DNA from: a virus
Lineage: Duplodnaviria; Caudoviricetes
Strand: one strand, 5' to 3'
DNA length: 52,911 nucleotides
Virus record (IMG/VR): IMGVR_UViG_3300037246_001346
Span: 1-52,911 of that record
Below are positions 5,453 to 28,618 of the stretch, piece by piece. Each line of letters opens with the position of its first letter. The stretch's first letter is position 1. Made by a program: the position numbers and the translations under genes. The notes beneath the pieces are model-generated. The model did no database searches. It was not told where the DNA came from and saw only the letters and a program-made list of their open reading frames with translations.

Positions 5453-7725
5453 ACGGATTACAAGCCCCCCCAGGGTACGAGGAAATAGAAGAGAAAAAGA
5501 AACCTCTTGCTATGCCTCGAATACTGCCTCCTGGGTATGAAGAAGCACCCAAGAAAGAACTTGAGCCAATCAGAAGAGAACCCGAACTGGGTGATTGGAA
5601 AAAAGAACTTCCAGGGGCAATCAAGGAAACATTAGGGGAGTTACCTGTAGCACAACTCGGGAAAAAGAAATACTGGATAGAGGCTGGTGAGAATCTTAGT
5701 AAGGGGATATCTGGGTTTCTTCAAGCTATAACTGGTATGCCAGGAAGACAGGTAGAAGAAGAAGCGAGGTTAGCCGCCATGAGAGGAGCGGTGGGAGAAA
5801 GACCGTCTCCCGTTAAGGTGGCTGGTATGATCGGAAAAGAAGTGGGGAAGATGGGTTTTGAGTTTGTGGCATTCCTACCGAAAATCGCCATCGCACTCGC
5901 CAAAGACCCAATCAAAGAAGTGAGGGACAATCCTCTCGGAGTCGGACTTCTGGTTGCTTCGGTAGTAGGAGTTTCGGGAGCTAGAATAAGGAGTAAGGCA
6001 AGGACAGGTAAACCGATACTTAAACAGGATATGGCTAAGGCTATAGATTCAATCCCCGAAAGTATTTTAACCAAGAAACAAAAAGCTAAGATAAAACCAG
6101 CACTCCCCGAGCAGATGGAGTTATCATTTGGTAAAGCAGAAGCAATAACTCCAGTACAAAAGATTATAACCGCCCTCAAGGAAGCGAAGCCACTCAGGGC
6201 AAAACAGGAAGTATTATATACGGCAGAGCGTGCCAAGAGGTTCCCAAAAGCAATGGAAGCTCTCGAAAAAGTCAGGGGAAGAAAGGGGTTTGAGGCTGCA
6301 AAAGCAAAGCTGAAAGGTGAAATGGAGAAGGTTGAATTCGAGTCTCTCAAATTGACGCAAGCTGATGTTGAATCGTTATTTAATCAAATTATTGATAGCC
6401 CAGCAGTAGCAGGTATTGAAAAAATACCAGCAGGACTAGGGCTTGCTAAGTTACTCGGAGAAAAGGGCGGTGTAGTACCCACCGCAGGTGAATTAGTACT
6501 ACTCAATAGAGTTTTTCCCAAAGAACTCGTTCAAACCATATTAAGTAAGCGTCCCCGATGGGAAAAGATTAAAGCTGGCTTAATAGAGGCAGCAAATGTT
6601 CCCCGTGCTCTCATGGCATCATACGATTTGTCTTTTATGCTCAGGCAGGGTATATTTCTTGCGGCTCGTTATCCCAAAGAGTTTCTCTCTTCTTTTGCCA
6701 AACAATTTAAGCTATTTGGAAGTGAAAAAGCATTTAAAGCATTAACTGAAAATATAGTTAATCGCCCAACTTATAAATTAGCGAAGCGTGGCAGAGGACA
6801 AAAGGAGTTGGCACTTACAGAGCTAGGTGGGCCTCTTAGCTTGCGAGAAGAGGCGTTTTTTGGAGCAGCGATGGCAGAGAAAATACCCATCGTTGGTCTT
6901 GGCGTCAGGGCATCAAACCGAGCATATACAGGTGCTGCGAATAAACTAAGAATGGATGTGTTTGATCACTTAATAAAGGGAGCCGAGAAAACTGGACGAA
7001 ATCCATGGAAAGACCCTGGGCTTGTAGACAGCATCATTGATTTTATTAATGCGGGGAGTGGGCGTGGTGCGATGCCGAAAGCACTTCAAAAATCTGCCGT
7101 TGCTCTTAATACGGCTCTATTCTCGCCTCGATTGATGAGTTCTCGGATGAGTTTACTTAGTCCCCGTTTTTATTATAAGTTAGACAAGTTTACTAGGAGG
7201 CAGGCATTACAATCTTTATTCGCATTCGCTGGGATGACCACGACTGTTTTAGCGTTAGCGAAGGCGAGTGGTGCTGAGGTAGAAACTAATCTTCTCAGCT
7301 CTGATTTTGGTAAGATTAAAATTGGAGACACCCGCATAGATATTATGGGTGGTTTTCAACAATACATCAGAACAGCAGCACAGTTTACGATGGGCAAAAC
7401 CATCAGCACAACAACGGGAAAGGTCACGAAAACTGGAGAGGGATACAAACCCATATCTAGGGGGCAAATTGTAGGCAGGGGATTAGAATATAAGTTAGCT
7501 CCTGTTGCATCTTTCGCCATTGCTTTATACCGTGGACGGAATATCTTCGGTGGGCCACTCGACATACCCGAAGAGGTTGCCAAGCGGTTCGTGCCGATGG
7601 TCATACAGGATGTAATTGATTTAGCTAAAGATGACCCCGAATTATTACCAGTATCTATTCTGGGTTTTTTCGGTACTGGGATACAAACATACGGGGCAAA
7701 GAAAAAGAAGGGGGTTATTTATTGA
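5449..7725 (+). CDS. Large internal virion/ejection protein
   Basis: 758 aa, PPGYEE repeats at the N-terminus, SSDFGKIKIGDTRIDI C-terminal region; last of the ejection-gene block. Confidence 0.6.
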   Translation: MNGLQAPPGYEEIEEKKKPLAMPRILPPGYEEAPKKELEPIRREPELGDWKKELPGAIKETLGELPVAQLGKKKYWIEAGENLSKGISGFLQAITGMPGRQVEEEARLAAMRGAVGERPSPVKVAGMIGKEVGKMGFEFVAFLPKIAIALAKDPIKEVRDNPLGVGLLVASVVGVSGARIRSKARTGKPILKQDMAKAIDSIPESILTKKQKAKIKPALPEQMELSFGKAEAITPVQKIITALKEAKPLRAKQEVLYTAERAKRFPKAMEALEKVRGRKGFEAAKAKLKGEMEKVEFESLKLTQADVESLFNQIIDSPAVAGIEKIPAGLGLAKLLGEKGGVVPTAGELVLLNRVFPKELVQTILSKRPRWEKIKAGLIEAANVPRALMASYDLSFMLRQGIFLAARYPKEFLSSFAKQFKLFGSEKAFKALTENIVNRPTYKLAKRGRGQKELALTELGGPLSLREEAFFGAAMAEKIPIVGLGVRASNRAYTGAANKLRMDVFDHLIKGAEKTGRNPWKDPGLVDSIIDFINAGSGRGAMPKALQKSAVALNTALFSPRLMSSRMSLLSPRFYYKLDKFTRRQALQSLFAFAGMTTTVLALAKASGAEVETNLLSSDFGKIKIGDTRIDIMGGFQQYIRTAAQFTMGKTISTTTGKVTKTGEGYKPISRGQIVGRGLEYKLAPVASFAIALYRGRNIFGGPLDIPEEVAKRFVPMVIQDVIDLAKDDPELLPVSILGFFGTGIQTYGAKKKKGVIY

Positions 7726-13217: not shown

Positions 13218-13409
13218 TCATTTCTTTTCCCTCCATGAGTATGTCCCGTCTCTTTTTAAATTCGCGGCAGTAGGTAATTTAATCCAATCACACTTAAAAC
13301 ATTTCTCACACGGCATCATGGATACTATCCTTTCATAGTCTGCGTAAGAAGTCAAGAGTAGGGGGCGTTCAAACTTACAATGCCCGCAACGGATCATATA
13401 TTGTGGCAT
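13218..13409 (-). CDS. FmdB-like zinc-ribbon protein
   Basis: MPQYMIRCGHCKFE...CEKC. Confidence 0.65.
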   Translation of the reverse strand: MPQYMIRCGHCKFERPLLLTSYADYERIVSMMPCEKCFKCDWIKLPTAANLKRDGTYSWREKK

Positions 13410-13724
13410 CTAATTCCTAATAGGCTCTCTTTGTAACCACCTTACTGCTGCCGACCTCCCCACGTTTAGCTCCTTATGCCGCGGACACAGACTCCAGCGT
13501 GGGTTCTGCCAAGGCTGGGCACGGAATTTCCTATCACAATCCGTCCTACAGCATACCGTCCACCCACCACTACGCACCCCCCTTGACTGTCTCTGGGGTA
13601 TAGCCCTAGTGGTATTTAATGCCCGATACCGCTTCAGATATTTCCGTTTGCGGACAATCCAGCACTCATCACAGAGTTGTAGTGTGGTATGCTTGGTTAC
13701 CTCTTGCCCGCAGTTACAGTTCAT
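13410..13724 (-). CDS. Cys-rich hypothetical protein
   Basis: CNCG, CDEC, CRTDC and CPRH motifs. Confidence 0.55.
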   Translation of the reverse strand: MNCNCGQEVTKHTTLQLCDECWIVRKRKYLKRYRALNTTRAIPQRQSRGVRSGGWTVCCRTDCDRKFRAQPWQNPRWSLCPRHKELNVGRSAAVRWLQREPIRN

Positions 13725-14330: not shown

Positions 14331-15131
14331 TTATGGCAATAAACTTTCATGATTATCTCCTGGTGTTATAACCTTATATGTTTGACGGCGGTTATCCGTC
14401 TTGCCGCTGGTACACCCCCTGAAATTCACGACTATATGTTCTACGGTAGCAGCAGGTTTACCCTTTTCTTCGGCATAACTACCACTCCACTCAAGGGCAG
14501 AACCGATGATGTAATTATACCCAACACGCGTTATGATCTTTTTTCTCCCCACATCATACCACGTATAGGGAATTCTGCTTGTGATGTGGAAATGCCCGCT
14601 AAACGTGGCATCTGCGGTAGGCACTATCCTCCGTAGAGCATCAGAGCGGTTTATCTTCCCCCCTGCCGTATATCCTCCGCCGACATTATGATGAAAATAG
14701 CACTTAAAAGAACAGGGGGTCTTACTTTCTACCTGAAAAACGGCATAGCAAGAGAAGCCCTTAAAAGGAACATCTAACTGATAACCAATATATTCTTCTG
14801 GAGTCAGCCCCACTAATCTGTGTGTGCGGCTCTCGTGGTTTCCTGCGATCATAAACAACCCCTTCTCTTTTATAGGTTCAAGCAACTCTACTACATATTT
14901 CATCTGCTCTTTCGGCGGCATAATTTGGGTATACACATCAGACTTACTCCCAATTATTGCATTTTCCATCCAGTCGCCCATCCCTACCCAGTAACCAACG
15001 GGGTCGAGGTAAATTTCCTTAATGACTTTTTTTATAAACCCCTCTTTACACTGCTGACTGCCCATGTGCCAGTCACCGATGGGGTAAAGATTGAAATCTT
15101 TCATTGGGAACTTCTTGTAAAAAAACTTCAT
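14331..15131 (-). CDS. Calcineurin-like metallophosphoesterase
   Basis: GDWHMG, GDWMEN, GNHE, HH and GHFH motifs. Confidence 0.9.
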   Translation of the reverse strand: MKFFYKKFPMKDFNLYPIGDWHMGSQQCKEGFIKKVIKEIYLDPVGYWVGMGDWMENAIIGSKSDVYTQIMPPKEQMKYVVELLEPIKEKGLFMIAGNHESRTHRLVGLTPEEYIGYQLDVPFKGFSCYAVFQVESKTPCSFKCYFHHNVGGGYTAGGKINRSDALRRIVPTADATFSGHFHITSRIPYTWYDVGRKKIITRVGYNYIIGSALEWSGSYAEEKGKPAATVEHIVVNFRGCTSGKTDNRRQTYKVITPGDNHESLLP

Positions 15132-15325
15132 CTTACCTCCTGGTTTACATTGTTATGCGACACGCTATTCTTATCTTTAATTTCCCTCATGGTTTTTTCT
15201 AGCCTTCGGAAAGCATCGCCACAAATATCTTCCCACAAAAGACTTTGATATAATGTGGGGTTCTCTTCTTCCCATGTTAATTTCGTTGGGTATTTAGTTG
15301 ACATAATATCCCTTATCCGACACAG

Positions 15326-15535
15326 TTATCTCACTCTCCGTGCTTTATTCATGCAATCTAAACATCTTCTTGCTGAAGGAATACTTCCCAAAATTGTATA
15401 GAGATATTTTCTTCCAGCTTTAATTTTTGTGCCACATTCAAAACACAAATAATTATTTATCGCCGTTCTTATAGAATCGCTTGCGAATAAACTTATGAAT
15501 CTTCCATTAATATATACTGATCGTAACTTGGTCAT
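15326..15535 (-). CDS. Cassette ORF, Zn-finger hypothetical
   Basis: CFECG...CLDC; bounded by dif-like sites. Confidence 0.65.
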   Translation of the reverse strand: MTKLRSVYINGRFISLFASDSIRTAINNYLCFECGTKIKAGRKYLYTILGSIPSARRCLDCMNKARRVR

Positions 15536-15560
15536 TGTCCTTTAGTTGACATACTTCTCC

Positions 15561-15773
15561 CTATTTACCGCCGATTTCCATGAATCGTCCATAACAAAGA
15601 TAGCAACATATCTTTGGGGATATTCTCCAACCATTCCAAATTATTGGAAGATTCTGTGTTGCTCTTTTTTTATTTGTCTCATTGCTATAGTAGGTGGTTT
15701 TTCTTCCACAAGCACACTTAATATCCAAGACATATCTTGTTATTTTACGTGGTGTTATCGTTCCTTTCTCCAT
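15561..15773 (-). CDS. Cassette ORF, Zn-finger hypothetical
   Basis: CACG...GW...CCYLC; AGGAG RBS; bounded by dif-like sites. Confidence 0.65.
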   Translation of the reverse strand: MEKGTITPRKITRYVLDIKCACGRKTTYYSNETNKKRATQNLPIIWNGWRISPKICCYLCYGRFMEIGGK

Positions 15774-15813
15774 TTCATTCTCCTGAAGTTGACATAATTA
15801 CTATTATGCGACA

Positions 15814-15999
15814 CTATGAAATTGCCCTCCAGGGCAACCTTAAATAGCCATACACACAGCCACCTGTTGTGTCACATGGACACCCAGAACAACGATAATA
15901 TTTGTGTCCTTCTGGACATAGTGGAATCTTTTCTCCATTTTCCCAGCCCATCCACACTATATGCCAAACTATGTGATGAGCTTCTCTAATTTCAACCAT
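15814..15999 (-). CDS. Cassette ORF, Cys-rich hypothetical
   Basis: GGAGGT RBS; CPEGH...CSGCPC; bounded by dif-like sites. Confidence 0.6.
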   Translation of the reverse strand: MVEIREAHHIVWHIVWMGWENGEKIPLCPEGHKYYRCSGCPCDTTGGCVYGYLRLPWRAIS

Positions 16000-16029
16000 C
16001 CTTACCTCCTTTAGTTGACATAATCCTCT

Positions 16030-16221
16030 CTATTTGCCCCGTTTTTTTAATCTAAAGATAATATCGGGAACTACATGAAAATGTGAAATACTCATAAGTT
16101 CTAATTCAACCTCATTCTTACTTTGCTCTAACTCAAAGTGAATATTTGAATCATCCGATTTAGTGCATTTTCTTGTATCTTTAATGGCTTTCTCTAATTG
16201 TTTTAATGTAAATTTTTTCAT
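16030..16221 (-). CDS. Cassette ORF, hypothetical
   Basis: Bounded by dif-like sites; its stop lies inside a site arm. Confidence 0.65.
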   Translation of the reverse strand: MKKFTLKQLEKAIKDTRKCTKSDDSNIHFELEQSKNEVELELMSISHFHVVPDIIFRLKKRGK

Positions 16222-16250
16222 TCTCTACCCTCTAGTTGACATAATCCTTC

Positions 16251-16433
16251 TTATGCGACACTGATTTTTCTTCCGTTATAAGTAAAAGCTATGCCAAGTT
16301 CACCATATACTTTATGTCCATGTTTTTTGGCGTGAATCTTTGCGATTGCTTGAGCATTTTTATAACTCTGGGTTTCCCAATCACAATCATCACATTTTAC
16401 AATGGCATGAATAACACCATATGAATATTTCAT
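16251..16433 (-). CDS. Cassette ORF, C2H2-type Zn-finger hypothetical
   Basis: CDDCDW...HAKKHGH; stop TAA supplied by the XerC-like arm. Confidence 0.7.
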   Translation of the reverse strand: MKYSYGVIHAIVKCDDCDWETQSYKNAQAIAKIHAKKHGHKVYGELGIAFTYNGRKISVA

Positions 16434-16471
16434 CCTCTCTTCCTAGTTGACATATTCTTATGCGACACAGG

Positions 16472-16627
16472 TTATTTATCCGATTTTTCCCCTTCTAGTA
16501 ATTCTTCTATTCTGGAAATTAATTTAGTTGCTTCTTCCCTGTCTTTCTTTCCAGCTTTAATATCATCCTTGATTCTCTTGGCTATCTTTAAGTATCCCTT
16601 AGCAGTTTTTGTCCTAATGTTTCTCAT
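16472..16627 (-). CDS. 51-aa hypothetical protein (absent from the ORF track)
   Basis: MRNIRTKTAKGYLKIAKRIKDD...EKSDK; ends in the junction motif next to the last dif-like site. Confidence 0.5.
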   Translation of the reverse strand: MRNIRTKTAKGYLKIAKRIKDDIKAGKKDREEATKLISRIEELLEGEKSDK

Positions 16628-16760
16628 CAATCAATTCCCTAATTTGTTCATAGGCTACTTCATCATTTGCACCAGACCAAATTTTCGCTTCCTTTGCCTG
16701 TCCCCGTAGCCAAGAAAACCAGTAAAGTAATTCTTCTTTGTTTAATTCAATATTATTCAT
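16614..16760 (-). CDS. Hypothetical protein of the KEELL family
   Basis: GGAGGT RBS before ATG 16760; LNKEELL...AYEQIRELI. Confidence 0.6.
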   Translation of the reverse strand: MNNIELNKEELLYWFSWLRGQAKEAKIWSGANDEVAYEQIRELIDEKH

Positions 16761-16768
16761 ATTACCTC

Positions 16769-17770
16769 CTACCATATTGGTCTTGTCCAACAGCCCACAT
16801 CTGAGAAGTCGTGGCCGTCGCATATCTTGAAAGTCCTCGTCATCCCATTGGGGCTTTCCTTACCACGCCTATTCTTAGCCTTGACTATCTTTATTATCCC
16901 ATCATCTATAGAAAGATAAAGGCGTGACTTCCCGATGCTTTTTGCCCCACCAATACCAAGGTCTACGTCTATGTATTTACCAGCCTTAAAGTCATACCGT
17001 TTTGGGTTCTTTTGAATGGCTACTAGGGCAATACCCTTATCTAACTTGTTGTGTATCTCTTTAAGTGGTGTGCCAATTTCAGCGAAACCCTCTGTCACAT
17101 CAAGGTAGTCTATTAGATTGATTGCGTTTGGTTTAATAACATCCGCAAAGGCATCCTCTCTTTCCCAGAAAGTACATTTCCAGTCTTCCTTTCTTATATC
17201 CCTAAACAACCCCAGGCGTACCGCTAATTCAGAATCACCTGCTTCGTTGATGAATAAATGAATTTCGTGTTTATCCATATTGAGCTTTGCAAACTCTAAC
17301 AGGAATCCCGACTTGCCTGCATCGCTCTTTCCCGCTACCACGATCAGACTCTTGGGATATATCTTAACATACTCCTCTATTCCCAGTGGGAACTTCAACG
17401 GTATTTCTATGGTTGGGGCATCCTGCCAGTTCATAATCTCGCACTCTCTCTCTATCCTACGGTATACCCCCTGTTTTGAACCATACTTCTCAATAACCCC
17501 ACCCTCTCTCAACCGCCTGAGAATGATGCTAATATTCTTCATGTCTTTCCTATGTTGCTCTGGTTCTGTAGACAGGTGTAGACTTTTGACGACTTCCGTA
17601 GAGAAAAAGTAGCCATCTGTAGACATTACGAATTCCTTAACTTCTTCTGCCAGTGACTTTTTATTGGTGATTTCATCCAGTGCCTCGTCTATTGCGGCTT
17701 GTATGTCCTTGTCCTTGCCGAGTTTTGCCGCGACACGTATCTTGCCTAGAGCCTCTTGTGATAGTTTCAT
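16769..17770 (-). CDS. Replication protein: N-terminal wHTH-like region plus RecA-fold (SF4/DnaB-like) helicase ATPase
   Basis: Walker A AGKSDAGKS, Walker B-like LIDYL, VAIQK, KAKNRR arginine-finger region. Confidence 0.75.
   Translation of the reverse strand: MKLSQEALGKIRVAAKLGKDKDIQAAIDEALDEITNKKSLAEEVKEFVMSTDGYFFSTEVVKSLHLSTEPEQHRKDMKNISIILRRLREGGVIEKYGSKQGVYRRIERECEIMNWQDAPTIEIPLKFPLGIEEYVKIYPKSLIVVAGKSDAGKSGFLLEFAKLNMDKHEIHLFINEAGDSELAVRLGLFRDIRKEDWKCTFWEREDAFADVIKPNAINLIDYLDVTEGFAEIGTPLKEIHNKLDKGIALVAIQKNPKRYDFKAGKYIDVDLGIGGAKSIGKSRLYLSIDDGIIKIVKAKNRRGKESPNGMTRTFKICDGHDFSDVGCWTRPIW
17568..17624. repeat. Helically phased GTAGAC-like iterons inside the replication gene (candidate origin)
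   Basis: Hexamers start at 17568, 17578, 17588, 17598, 17609 and 17619. Confidence 0.5.
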
Positions 17771-20550: not shown

Positions 20551-21195
20551 TCACCTCAACTCCTTCTTTAGTTTATAAATCTCTAGTAGTTTAATGAATA
20601 TTTCCCATGCCGCGCTACCCATCTCGGGGGTAACCTCCTTCTCTATGAAAGACTCACCCTTGGTGCGTGGTATATTTAGTATCCTCACCTTCTCTCCTTC
20701 ATGCCCGTTTTCATATAGTAACTGCTGATACGCGGTGACTTGTATCACCATCTCTGGGTAAAGTCCCTTCCCTGTTTTGAGGTCAATCAGTTCGTTTACT
20801 CCGTCTACCTTAGCGTAGATGTCAGGTGTACCCCCATATCCAAGTCTTTCATTTACCAGGGGAGTTTCTATAAGTATGGGTTCTATCTTCTTCCCCTTTG
20901 CCCAGTGAAAGAAGCTGTCTGCCGCGTTCTGGGCAAAATTAATCTGGTTCATCGAGTAATCATCTGTGCATGTAGTGTTGCCCAGTAGGCTGTCTGTGAC
21001 AATTTTGTGCGCGAGTGTCCCTATCTCAGCCTTATCGTCCACGAATTTGGTTGTGTCAATTCCTTCCAGCCCCTTCCTATTAGCCCAGTTCACCAGTATT
21101 TGCTTATTCCACCCCAGTTGCCCCGTGATGGTAGTTACACCAGGGCATCTCTTACCAGTTTCTAATCTATATCGTTGGTGCGCTTTTGATTTCAC
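20551..21195 (-). CDS. PD-(D/E)XK exonuclease (Cas4/RecB-like)
   Basis: PGVTTI, GTLAH, E..LV...GYGGTPD...LIDLKTG, QVTAY. Confidence 0.85.
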   Translation of the reverse strand: MKSKAHQRYRLETGKRCPGVTTITGQLGWNKQILVNWANRKGLEGIDTTKFVDDKAEIGTLAHKIVTDSLLGNTTCTDDYSMNQINFAQNAADSFFHWAKGKKIEPILIETPLVNERLGYGGTPDIYAKVDGVNELIDLKTGKGLYPEMVIQVTAYQQLLYENGHEGEKVRILNIPRTKGESFIEKEVTPEMGSAAWEIFIKLLEIYKLKKELR

Positions 21196-25645: not shown

Positions 25646-26038
25646 TCATTTCATCCCCTTATTTTGCTCCGATTTTCCCTCCTCAAGCACGGCTAATACG
25701 GCTTTCAGGCAAGCTTCGAGTGGGGTTTTGCCACTCCCTACTTGTTGAGTTTCCGTATACTCATCCATCCATAACCACCACTCTTTTTCATCTCCCTCAT
25801 CGTGGATTAAAAGCACATGGTCTTGGCATCGTTCCCTCAAAAACTCCAAGCAGTCGGATATAGTCCAGAGAGGGATAATCTCATCTGTAGTAACAATGTC
25901 CTTGGTTTGTTTAAATGGCATTGACCACAAATGTATTTCATCTTGATAAAAATACATATCACTTTTTTCGATGTCTTTCCTGTGCTTCTCCGCTACCTGC
26001 CTACACAGGCTTATTTCTTTTTTGGTGAATTTATTCAT
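25646..26038 (-). CDS. Hypothetical phage protein
   Basis: IPLWTISDCLEFL...GKTPLEACLKAVL; strong RBS. Confidence 0.7.
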   Translation of the reverse strand: MNKFTKKEISLCRQVAEKHRKDIEKSDMYFYQDEIHLWSMPFKQTKDIVTTDEIIPLWTISDCLEFLRERCQDHVLLIHDEGDEKEWWLWMDEYTETQQVGSGKTPLEACLKAVLAVLEEGKSEQNKGMK

Positions 26039-26919: not shown

Positions 26920-27141
26920 TTATTTGCCCCGATTTAATATAATCTTAATCTGCTTCAATAATACTATCTTTGTTTCCATTTCTAATTGGATTAAAGCTAA
27001 TGGGGCGTTGATTTCGATAAGTGCAGGCTTATAATGAAAACGTGCATCATCCTCTATTTCTTTAATACCCTTATCAATAAACTTAATTAATTCGTTCATC
27101 ATTATATAAGCCTCTGATTTGTGTTTATCTTTATTACACAC
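26920..27141 (-). CDS. Hypothetical protein
   Basis: INAPLALIQLEME motif; ends NRGK within the junction motif. Confidence 0.6.
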   Translation of the reverse strand: MCNKDKHKSEAYIMMNELIKFIDKGIKEIEDDARFHYKPALIEINAPLALIQLEMETKIVLLKQIKIILNRGK

Positions 27142-28590: not shown

Positions 28591-28618
28591 GGTTCGCATA
28601 ACAGTTATTATGTCTACT
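28591..28618 (+). other. dif: Solitary dif-like XerC/XerD recombination site
   Basis: GGTTCGCATAA CAGTTA TTATGTCTACT versus E. coli dif GGTGCGCATAA TGTATA TTATGTTAAAT (arms match 10/11 and 8/11); lies in the largest non-coding region. Confidence 0.75.

Follow-up and report, generated by a model that had tools for sequence, protein, structure and literature searches.

Dif-type junctions bounding single small genes in the variable early operon of a tailed phage

Small genes bounded by short recombination sites are known from several kinds of mobile element. Acinetobacter plasmids carry pdif (plasmid dif) modules, small gene modules bordered by 28-bp copies of chromosomal dif on a mobile replicon without a recombinase of its own, whose movement has been inferred by comparative genomics; the excerpted text of PMC10132070 gives Xer sites an 11-6-11 layout and defines the module by the pdif site at each of its ends, the two being oppositely oriented (C/D then D/C). 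Integrons, built on IntI, attI and attC, hold promoterless single-gene cassettes in a row and in one orientation, each bounded by a recombination site. Integrative mobile elements exploiting Xer (IMEXs), namely CTXphi, VGJphi, TLCphi, temperate microviruses and tailless vibriophages, are integrase-less viruses that use host XerCD at sites like the host dif. In T4-type phages, PeSL (promoter early stem-loop) cassettes carry a sigma-70 promoter and a terminator and recombine by homology; according to the excerpted text of PMC2839356, their short direct repeats stand between small non-essential genes of a hyperplastic early region, which is shuffled in modules at the repeats. Here we analyzed a row of dif-type junctions between small genes in the virus record IMGVR_UViG_3300037246_001346. 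The window, by which we mean this whole stretch of 52,911 bp, was found in a marine-sediment run and is the complete-looking genome of a tailed phage with a portal (phrog_1216) and a large terminase (phrog_38).

The array resembles each of these systems in part. Like pdif modules, it combines small gene modules with 28-bp 11-6-11 copies of a chromosomal dif on a mobile replicon that lacks its own recombinase, and its movement, too, is read from comparative genomics. However, its sites are all direct repeats, whereas those of pdif modules are opposed in the excerpted text of PMC10132070, and a strict pdif module was rejected on this ground. Furthermore, about half of its spacers differ from 6 nucleotides (nt), each unit is a single gene of 58-70 amino acids (aa) fused to translation signals, and a tailed phage is the carrier. 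The row of promoterless cassettes in one orientation recalls integrons, but the window phage has no integrase, attI or Pc platform, and its sites are of the double-strand dif type rather than folded attC; an integron was rejected because the 52.9-kb genome gave no PF00589 match and the sites are dif-type sequences of 22-28 nt, not attC. A solitary dif-like site at 28591 fits the IMEX picture, whereas IMEXs, as far as titles and abstracts describe them, have one attachment site or a pair for integration, are filamentous, micro- or tailless viruses, and carry no array between genes. PeSL cassettes are the nearest described behavior in tailed phages in the excerpted text of PMC2839356, and the initial annotation, which was made from the DNA letters and knew of nothing similar in tailed phages, had overlooked them. 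As with PeSL cassettes, direct repeats flank small open reading frames (ORFs) in a variable region, and indels and replacements between relatives occur at the repeats; the window sites differ in being copies of a site-specific recombination target and in having no promoter, terminator or stable fold. In titles and abstracts of the literature, an array of dif-type sites between tailed-phage genes was not found, and the Xer-exploiting carriers described there are filamentous, micro- and tailless viruses and Acinetobacter pdif modules. Both arms of the window array equal a demonstrable chromosomal dif, and the same phages keep solitary canonical sites.

Seven junctions around six small genes

The small early genes of the window phage form a long minus-strand operon (~11.1 to 28 kb). 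A DnaB/RecA-like gene (16769-17770) stands on one side of eight small ORFs of this operon and a metallophosphoesterase gene (14331-15131) on the other; the last six of these ORFs are separated by the junctions. Seven junctions were found on the minus strand at 15142-16468, all in direct orientation and each with one or both of the arms GTGTCGCATAA (left) and TTATGTCAACT (right). The arms are two ~11-bp imperfectly inverted halves in which the inner CATAA and TTATG are conserved. Both arms are present in four junctions, the right arm only in two, and the left arm with a degenerate right arm in one; the two-arm sites have a 6-nt spacer in three cases and a 2-nt spacer in the fourth. With at most one mismatch, the right arm has 9 matches in the window, six of them inside the array, against 1.59 expected, and none of 100 shuffles reached 9. 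The left arm has 5 window matches against 0.53 expected, every one inside the array.

Read along the minus strand, the row opens with a two-arm junction with the 2-nt spacer (GTGTCGCATAA-GA-ATATGTCAACT, 16445-16468); next come a ribosome-binding site and the point where the 60-aa gene starts. A canonical 11-6-11 dif-like site, GTGTCGCATAA-GAAGGA-TTATGTCAACT, lies at 16234-16261. At 16013-16023 only the right arm (TTATGTCAACT) is found, in a hybrid junction composed of a gene-end motif, AGAGGA, the right arm and a ribosome-binding site. The next canonical site, GTGTCGCATAA-TAGTAA-TTATGTCAACT, occupies 15787-15814, and a second hybrid junction follows at 15544-15554, where the right arm, with one mismatch (GTATGTCAACT), comes after …GGCGGTAAATAG. 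The third canonical site, GTGTCGGATAA-GGGATA-TTATGTCAACT at 15296-15323, contains the left-arm variant GTGTCGGATAA. The row closes at 15142-15163, just before the ribosome-binding site of the phosphoesterase gene, with the left arm (15153-15163), CA and the degenerate right arm ATGTAAACC, which agrees with the right-arm core at 7 of 9 positions; this short form (left arm-CA-ATGTAAACC) recurs in another phage (G004, position 5413). Repeated 28-bp sites had been reported in the initial annotation, and direct reading bore them out, with three canonical 11-6-11 sites and arms far above chance. Its variant site at 16445 does have a 2-nt spacer, and the two variants that it listed at 15544 and 16013 proved to be right arms only. 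The half site that it had listed at 15153 is not a bare one but the short form described above.

The junctions share one order of elements: stop codon, left arm, purine-rich spacer, right arm, 1-3 nt, a ribosome-binding site of the AGGAGG type, and start codon. The left arm often gives the stop itself (…GTC GCA TAA), and the right arm sometimes gives the start (ATG TCA ACT…). Right arms are spaced by 248, 243, 226, 221 and 211 nt, and each interval holds one ORF, both as first described, the ORFs being 58, 69, 70, 61, 63 and 60 aa long. They are mutually unrelated (BLASTP E<1e-3), as had been claimed; their sizes of 58-70 aa depart slightly from the 60-70 aa given before. Paired Cys/His motifs occur in four of the six, and every Pfam hit fell below the cut-off, so that the earlier label "Zn-finger-like" is a reading of the sequence and not a family assignment.

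All six cassette ORFs are on the minus strand. The 60-aa ORF (16251-16433) is C2H2-like and has one weak viral match (38% identity); its last codons are the left arm of the next site, whose TAA is its stop (…S-V-A-stop), and many array ORFs of other phages also end in …VA*. The 63-aa ORF (16030-16221) ends in the other gene-end motif (…CGGGGCAAATAG). The 61-aa ORF (15814-15999) is Cys/His-rich, and the bin 15821-15937 within it had no depth in runs X2 and X4 and a depth of 0.21 in X3. The 70-aa ORF (15561-15773) is Cys-rich and has a 23-aa match of 65% at the end of a viral contig (L159), beside a right arm. Two CxxC pairs are present in the 69-aa ORF (15326-15535), for which a set of 5.8 billion proteins held one 94%-identical protein. 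The 58-aa ORF (15128-15304) starts at the right-arm ATG of the site 15296-15323 (MSTK…) and reads through the last left arm; the right-arm ATG likewise starts ORFs in G001, G002, G003, G004 and G005, which are phages with arrays of their own.

Dif identity and distribution of the joints

A pattern taken from the phage, TGTCGCATAA-N6-TTATGTCAAC, was scanned for in one genome per species (185,579 species, 596 Gb). It gave 99 matches in 99 stretches of bacterial or archaeal genome contigs, where ~1 is expected by chance on our own estimate from 20 fixed bases. In 92 of the 99, the next base is a T, which the phage has as well. Most of these loci are labeled Aminicenantes; other labels are low-GC (guanine plus cytosine) "uncultured Eubacteriales" metagenome-assembled genomes (MAGs) with the same flanks, Eisenbacteria, Terriglobia/Acidobacteria, Myxococcota, Kiritimatiellae, Nitrospirales and some Burkholderiales-like MAGs. 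The site was single-copy in all five Aminicenantes genomes checked. When spacers of 0-10 nt were allowed, the spacer was 6 nt in all 5 Aminicenantes matches and in all 11 matches from 7 of 201 genomes of the same phylum (16/16). At 45 of the 61 loci that have 1 kb or more on each side, GC skew was higher to the left of the oriented site than to the right (binomial p=2.6e-4), the patterns including 30 of the +/- and 6 of the -/+ type; such a switch is what a terminus site shows. Among the five Aminicenantes genomes carrying the site, which represent candidate hosts, XerD passed the NCBIfam cut-off in all five and XerC in three. Since the arms match single-copy, skew-switch sites of bacteria that bear XerC/XerD, the window sites are truly dif-type. 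Judged by their sequence, the phage arms are exact copies of a genuine chromosomal dif-type sequence, and the joints have their sequence origin in the Xer/dif system. The nearest chromosomal version is of the low-GC Aminicenantes type, …ATTG-TGTCGCATAA-GGTATA/GGGTTA-TTATGTCAACT-AAT, at loci with a GC content of 0.31-0.43; that of the window phage is ~0.41. The dif likeness put forward in the initial annotation is thus upheld, with both arms exact against uncultured sediment bacteria. The likeness to Escherichia coli dif on which it had drawn is a weak comparison; the sediment bacteria provide the relevant one.

Two dif-type copies on separate contigs were observed in four MAGs (L055/L068, L074/L111, L060/L062 and L098/L118), and many genome matches lie within ~150 nt of a contig end. 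Elements integrated at dif would be expected to produce both patterns, by duplicating the site and by breaking assemblies.

A two-arm scan of 2.9 million viral contigs, with 2-8 nt allowed between the arms, found 22 stretches of two classes. Fifteen have one solitary site each without a following ribosome-binding site (spacer 6 nt in 14 and 8 nt in one), and the remaining stretches are arrays whose sites are followed by a ribosome-binding site and a start codon. A 16-nt pattern of right arm plus ribosome-binding site gave mostly chance matches in GC-rich viral contigs, L159 being the only new array. Among viral and metagenome contigs, arrays are carried by the window, G005 (the same as L006/L017/L139), L142, L013, G001, G002, G003, G004, L029 and L159. 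By tblastn, the window, G005, L142 and L013 form one phage group together with L146, and G001-G004, L159 and L029 have few or no genes in common with the window phage in the parts compared. Related phages, to which the initial annotation had pointed for comparison, do carry such arrays: similar ones recur in about ten contigs of several lineages and at different positions, with common site types and different genes.

The place of the array varies within the phage group. It fills the gap between the helicase and phosphoesterase genes in the window, lies ~1 kb downstream of the phosphoesterase gene in G005 and L142, and stands at the far end of the operon in L013; no array was found within ±6 kb in L007 and L009. 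The helicase/phosphoesterase junction is a hot spot for insertions: while G005 and L149 have the two genes directly side by side, small genes lie between them in L137, and HNH-type endonuclease genes are found there in L138 (1-257, with an 88% identical phosphoesterase), L140 (~560-1214) and L141 (~50-705).

Joints of the same type recur between phages. The 28-mer with the center TAGTAA is identical in the window and G005, and G001 has the same center and right arm. The GTGTCGGATAA-GGGATA type is present in the window and G005, and the center GGGATA also in G001 and in one bacterial MAG (L049). Other common types are GA, the 2-nt type of 16445-16468, in four contigs (the window, G005, G004 and L029), GTGA in two, GGGAAA in G003/L142, and [C/G]GACTA in G002/G003/L142. 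Cross-phage sequence identity ends at the site edges. The window and G005 agree in their type order (TAGTAA, one junction, GGGATA and the 2-nt type), and no homologue of a window cassette was found in any other array at E<1e-3. Identical centers across phages (8 of 69 pairs) exceed the 2.3 expected from chromosomal centers (P=0.016) and the 1.6 expected from the column composition of the arrays (P=0.006), in statistics that ignore shared ancestry. The same joint types in the same order with different genes between them point to the exchange of single genes at cognate joints, which probably mark the swap points. Three cassettes are common to different contigs; one of them, in G005 and L159, is 86% identical at the amino acid level and has different neighbors on both sides. 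In our reading, the joints are typed linkers derived from dif, which delimit cassettes of one gene each in a variable early operon. The 28 two-arm array sites most often have a 6-nt spacer (13 sites), the other lengths being 0 nt (2), 2 nt (4), 3 nt (3), 4 nt (5) and 5 nt (1). A center ending in TA was tried as a class marker and dropped, as its frequency (75/99 chromosomal, 5/13 array and 6/15 solitary viral sites) gave no clean separation.

Cassettes turn over at the joints in the population data as well. These data (runs X2-X4) are assembled contigs only, taken at a likeness threshold of 85, and their uncovered parts prove no absence. X4 record 27 (435 nt) contains the 69-aa cassette at ~89% identity with other junctions on both sides. 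Upstream of it stand 5 other letters and then 31 nt matching 16232-16262; these contain a full site at a place that is taken in the window by a hybrid with only the right arm. On the downstream side, the match breaks off at 15311, after two bases of the center of the site 15296-15323. At ≥85%, the 60-aa cassette is present in X2-X4. X2 also has the 63-aa cassette (a 152-nt contig with 4 differences), and its short contigs did not show the 69-, 70- and 61-aa cassettes; X4 also has the 69- and 70-aa cassettes, and its short contigs did not show those of 61 and 63 aa. Depth spikes at the three canonical sites in X2-X4 come from a 28-mer common to many genomes there, and as a spike also occurs in the helicase gene (16874-16990), such spikes are not site-specific.

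Six-frame searches of the 52.9-kb genome gave no match to a tyrosine (PF00589) or serine (PF00239) recombinase, in agreement with the initial annotation. The solitary canonical site, GGTTCGCATAA-CAGTTA-TTATGTCTACT, lies outside the array on the plus strand (28591-28618), in a non-coding region where transcription diverges. Its counterpart in G005 (L136, 17287-17314) has the same left flank, …CCAACAGGGGTG…GGTTCGCATAA, and the center CTACTA. A second solitary site of G005 (L136, 13656-13683) has the center CGGTTA, and that of L146 (2731-2758) GGTATA; CAGTTA, CGGTTA and GGTATA each occur among the chromosomal sites. The window phage group thus keeps canonical dif-type sites outside the arrays, as Xer-exploiting elements do. 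These sites suggest that a tailed phage may use XerCD for integration or dimer resolution, and they raise the separate question of whether integrase-less tailed phages lysogenize through dif.

Origin and possible activity of the joints

We propose, with a probability of roughly 0.45, an origin of the joints through XerC/XerD, which may remain active at the canonical half of the sites, the short and one-arm forms being fixed relics. Host XerC and XerD would have created the joints, and crossover by them possibly continues at the 11-6-11 members, where Xer catalysis is plausible. Differing centers would block recombination within one array and would permit exchange with a relative that infects the same cell and has a site of the same center. 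Joints with a short spacer or a single arm would be decayed, fixed copies, which would persist because they still supply a stop, a ribosome-binding site and a start together with 20-24 nt of identity for homologous exchange.

Several findings weigh against this proposal. Known Xer sites need a center of 6-8 bp. Whereas the spacer is 6 nt in 16 of 16 chromosomal matches, 0-5 nt separate the arms in 15 of the 28 two-arm array sites, and the short forms are kept across phages (GA in four contigs, GTGA in two), which suggests that they are retained for a role independent of Xer geometry. Two window junctions consist of a right arm only, fused to an unrelated gene-end motif (…ATCGGGGCAAATA[A/G]) with ~12 other copies in the operon, so that the conserved joints of this phage need not be Xer sites. 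The DNA homology of the cassette common to G005 and L159 extends from the ribosome-binding site to a point just short of the left arm. X3 record 20 (279 nt), the sole long-sided joint in X2-X4, connects 15133 to 16762 with sides of 176 and 103 nt (5 and 8 differences), so that a 1,628-nt minus-strand block (15134-16761), comprising the eight small genes and every array site, is missing from a close relative. The block is bounded by a 9-nt direct repeat, AGGAGGTAA (15133-15141 and 16762-16770), which precedes the first small gene and the phosphoesterase gene, and the break thus falls in two identical ribosome-binding sites, outside the dif-like sites; gain or loss of the block is of the microhomology type. 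Site-to-site joints and joints that go back along the window were not counted as evidence of excision, since their sides are 21-36 nt long and they may reflect circles, other gene orders or foreign sites; the site-to-site joints may stem from other organisms. Finally, a terminase search of 121 Aminicenantia genomes found neither a relative of the phage terminase nor an integrated phage copy, which is no evidence against Aminicenantes as candidate hosts.

Much of this would be expected if the joints were conserved linkers and genes were exchanged at them through phage or host functions, by homologous or microhomology-mediated recombination, XerC/XerD having no present part and dif being a relic of old capture or a convenient conserved 22-28-mer. 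We regard this as a serious candidate, though one short of even odds. It accounts for short-spacer and one-arm joints that are as conserved and as well placed as the canonical ones, for a block indel between two identical 9-nt ribosome-binding sites, and for a second, non-dif junction motif throughout the same operon. An exonuclease in the early operon (20551-21195, minus strand; phrog_298, E=7.4e-27) could serve such exchange, and short direct repeats drive both shuffling and mini-circle formation in the PeSL regions of T4-type phages in the excerpted text of PMC2839356. However, homology leaves unexplained why the arms are exact dif arms in the right order and orientation with mostly a 6-nt gap, and why the same phages have solitary canonical sites; moreover, no single-strand-annealing protein was recognized, as Pfam searches of 10 further early proteins neighboring the exonuclease gave none over the cut-off. 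Improbable, in our judgment, is an array that binds XerC/XerD without recombination and soaks up or recruits the recombinases or FtsK, for example to disturb chromosome dimer resolution or to process replicating phage DNA. A region expressed early that contains both binding arms in numerous exact copies, arms conserved better than their spacing, and solitary sites that tie the phage group to the dif system would agree with such a decoy, but strict placement at gene boundaries, one-gene units, centers typed across phages and turnover at the joints would not follow from it. The fixed position of the joints relative to stop codon, ribosome-binding site and start, the left-arm TAA that stops many upstream ORFs (…VA*) and the right-arm ATG that starts ORFs or opens in-frame leaders (MSTK…) in several phages could also indicate a signal at the level of RNA or translation, either an intercistronic combination of stop, ribosome-binding site and start or a hairpin for processing, with an incidental likeness to dif. 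This is similarly hard to credit, because the predicted hairpins are weak (-3.1 to -6.1 kcal/mol, z -1.5 to +0.35), the exact 20-nt match to both arms in 99 genome stretches is beyond chance, and the outer arm bases have no evident translational role. A regulatory cassette of the PeSL type, with early promoter and terminator stem-loop, has an analogous layout of short direct repeats flanking small ORFs in a variable region (excerpted text of PMC2839356). It was rejected and is very improbable, as promoter-like sites number 7 in the region 14900-17000, where 7.1 are expected, and none of them coincides with a dif-type site; terminator-like sites number 0, and the folds are weak.

The proposal that host XerC/XerD made the joints has a bolder form, close to the integron-like, host-XerCD-driven platform suggested in the initial annotation. 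Tailed phages of uncultured sediment bacteria would possess a recombinase-free cassette platform in which host XerC/XerD recombines same-center sites between co-infecting or co-resident genomes. The centers would act as addresses, stable in cis and exchangeable in trans, and the solitary site would serve XerCD-dependent lysogeny, making these phages the first tailed IMEXs. We consider this form doubtful. The dif-type sites, the absence of a phage recombinase and the turnover of cassettes agree with it, whereas about half of the array sites have no 6-nt center, two junctions are hybrids and the block indel lies elsewhere. The associated claim that genes are gained and lost at the sites held for cassette turnover with breaks at or in sites (X4 record 27) and failed for the well-supported indel of the close relative. 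If host XerC/XerD does exchange genes here, a universal housekeeping recombinase would drive the flux of accessory genes in tailed phages without any element-encoded enzyme, in parallel to integrons and pdif modules, and this would explain how tiny early genes, often involved in host takeover or anti-defense, move between unrelated phages. Even conservatively, several phage lineages carry the cell's own dif sequence between genes with typed centers, and three canonical and four decayed joints stand side by side in the window.

Flanking genes and further observations

The upstream flank of the array is a DnaB/RecA-like P-loop protein of 333 aa (16769-17770, minus strand; phrog_19, E=2.4e-5), for which no relative was found among viral contigs. 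On the downstream side lies a 266-aa protein resembling metallophosphoesterases and DNA-repair exonucleases (14331-15131, minus strand; phrog_7339, E=1.9e-32). Two small ORFs that overlap each other (16614-16760 and 16472-16630, together 16472-16760 on the minus strand) form the head of the block, and no dif-like site lies between them. A blastn search of the array region against 50,697 GenBank phage records gave zero matches. The only relatives of the portal protein are distant and uncultured, with 24-25% identity, and the portal therefore provides no cultured relative and no host clue.

In the same operon, the second gene-end motif, ATCGGGGCAAATA(A/G), reads …R-G-K-stop in one frame and ends ~12 unrelated early genes, after which a ribosome-binding site follows. 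Examples on the minus strand are at 26933, 26618, 25518, 24938, 24251, 22423, 19849, 16043 and 11772.

A contig from a MAG labeled Desulfobacterales (L097; 1860-3160 and 7156-7183) carries a canonical dif-type site and a site with a 5-nt spacer followed by a ribosome-binding site and start, and also encodes a 45% homologue of the window gene 25646-26038. This contig may belong to a phage and have entered the MAG through binning, or it may represent a prophage near dif. In G002 (L135, ~6038-6102, minus strand) and L020 (~13398-13462, minus strand), we observed a conserved composite of a right arm, ~26 nt (…TTTTAAGGG.GA.T…) and a full 11-6-11 site with the center [C/G]GACTA. In the 44-kb contig of G003, the same cassette start (…AAGGAGGCAAAAATGACACAAGAAG…) is found near both ends (L133, 6251; L132, 692) behind different site variants, which reflects either a duplicated cassette or terminal redundancy.

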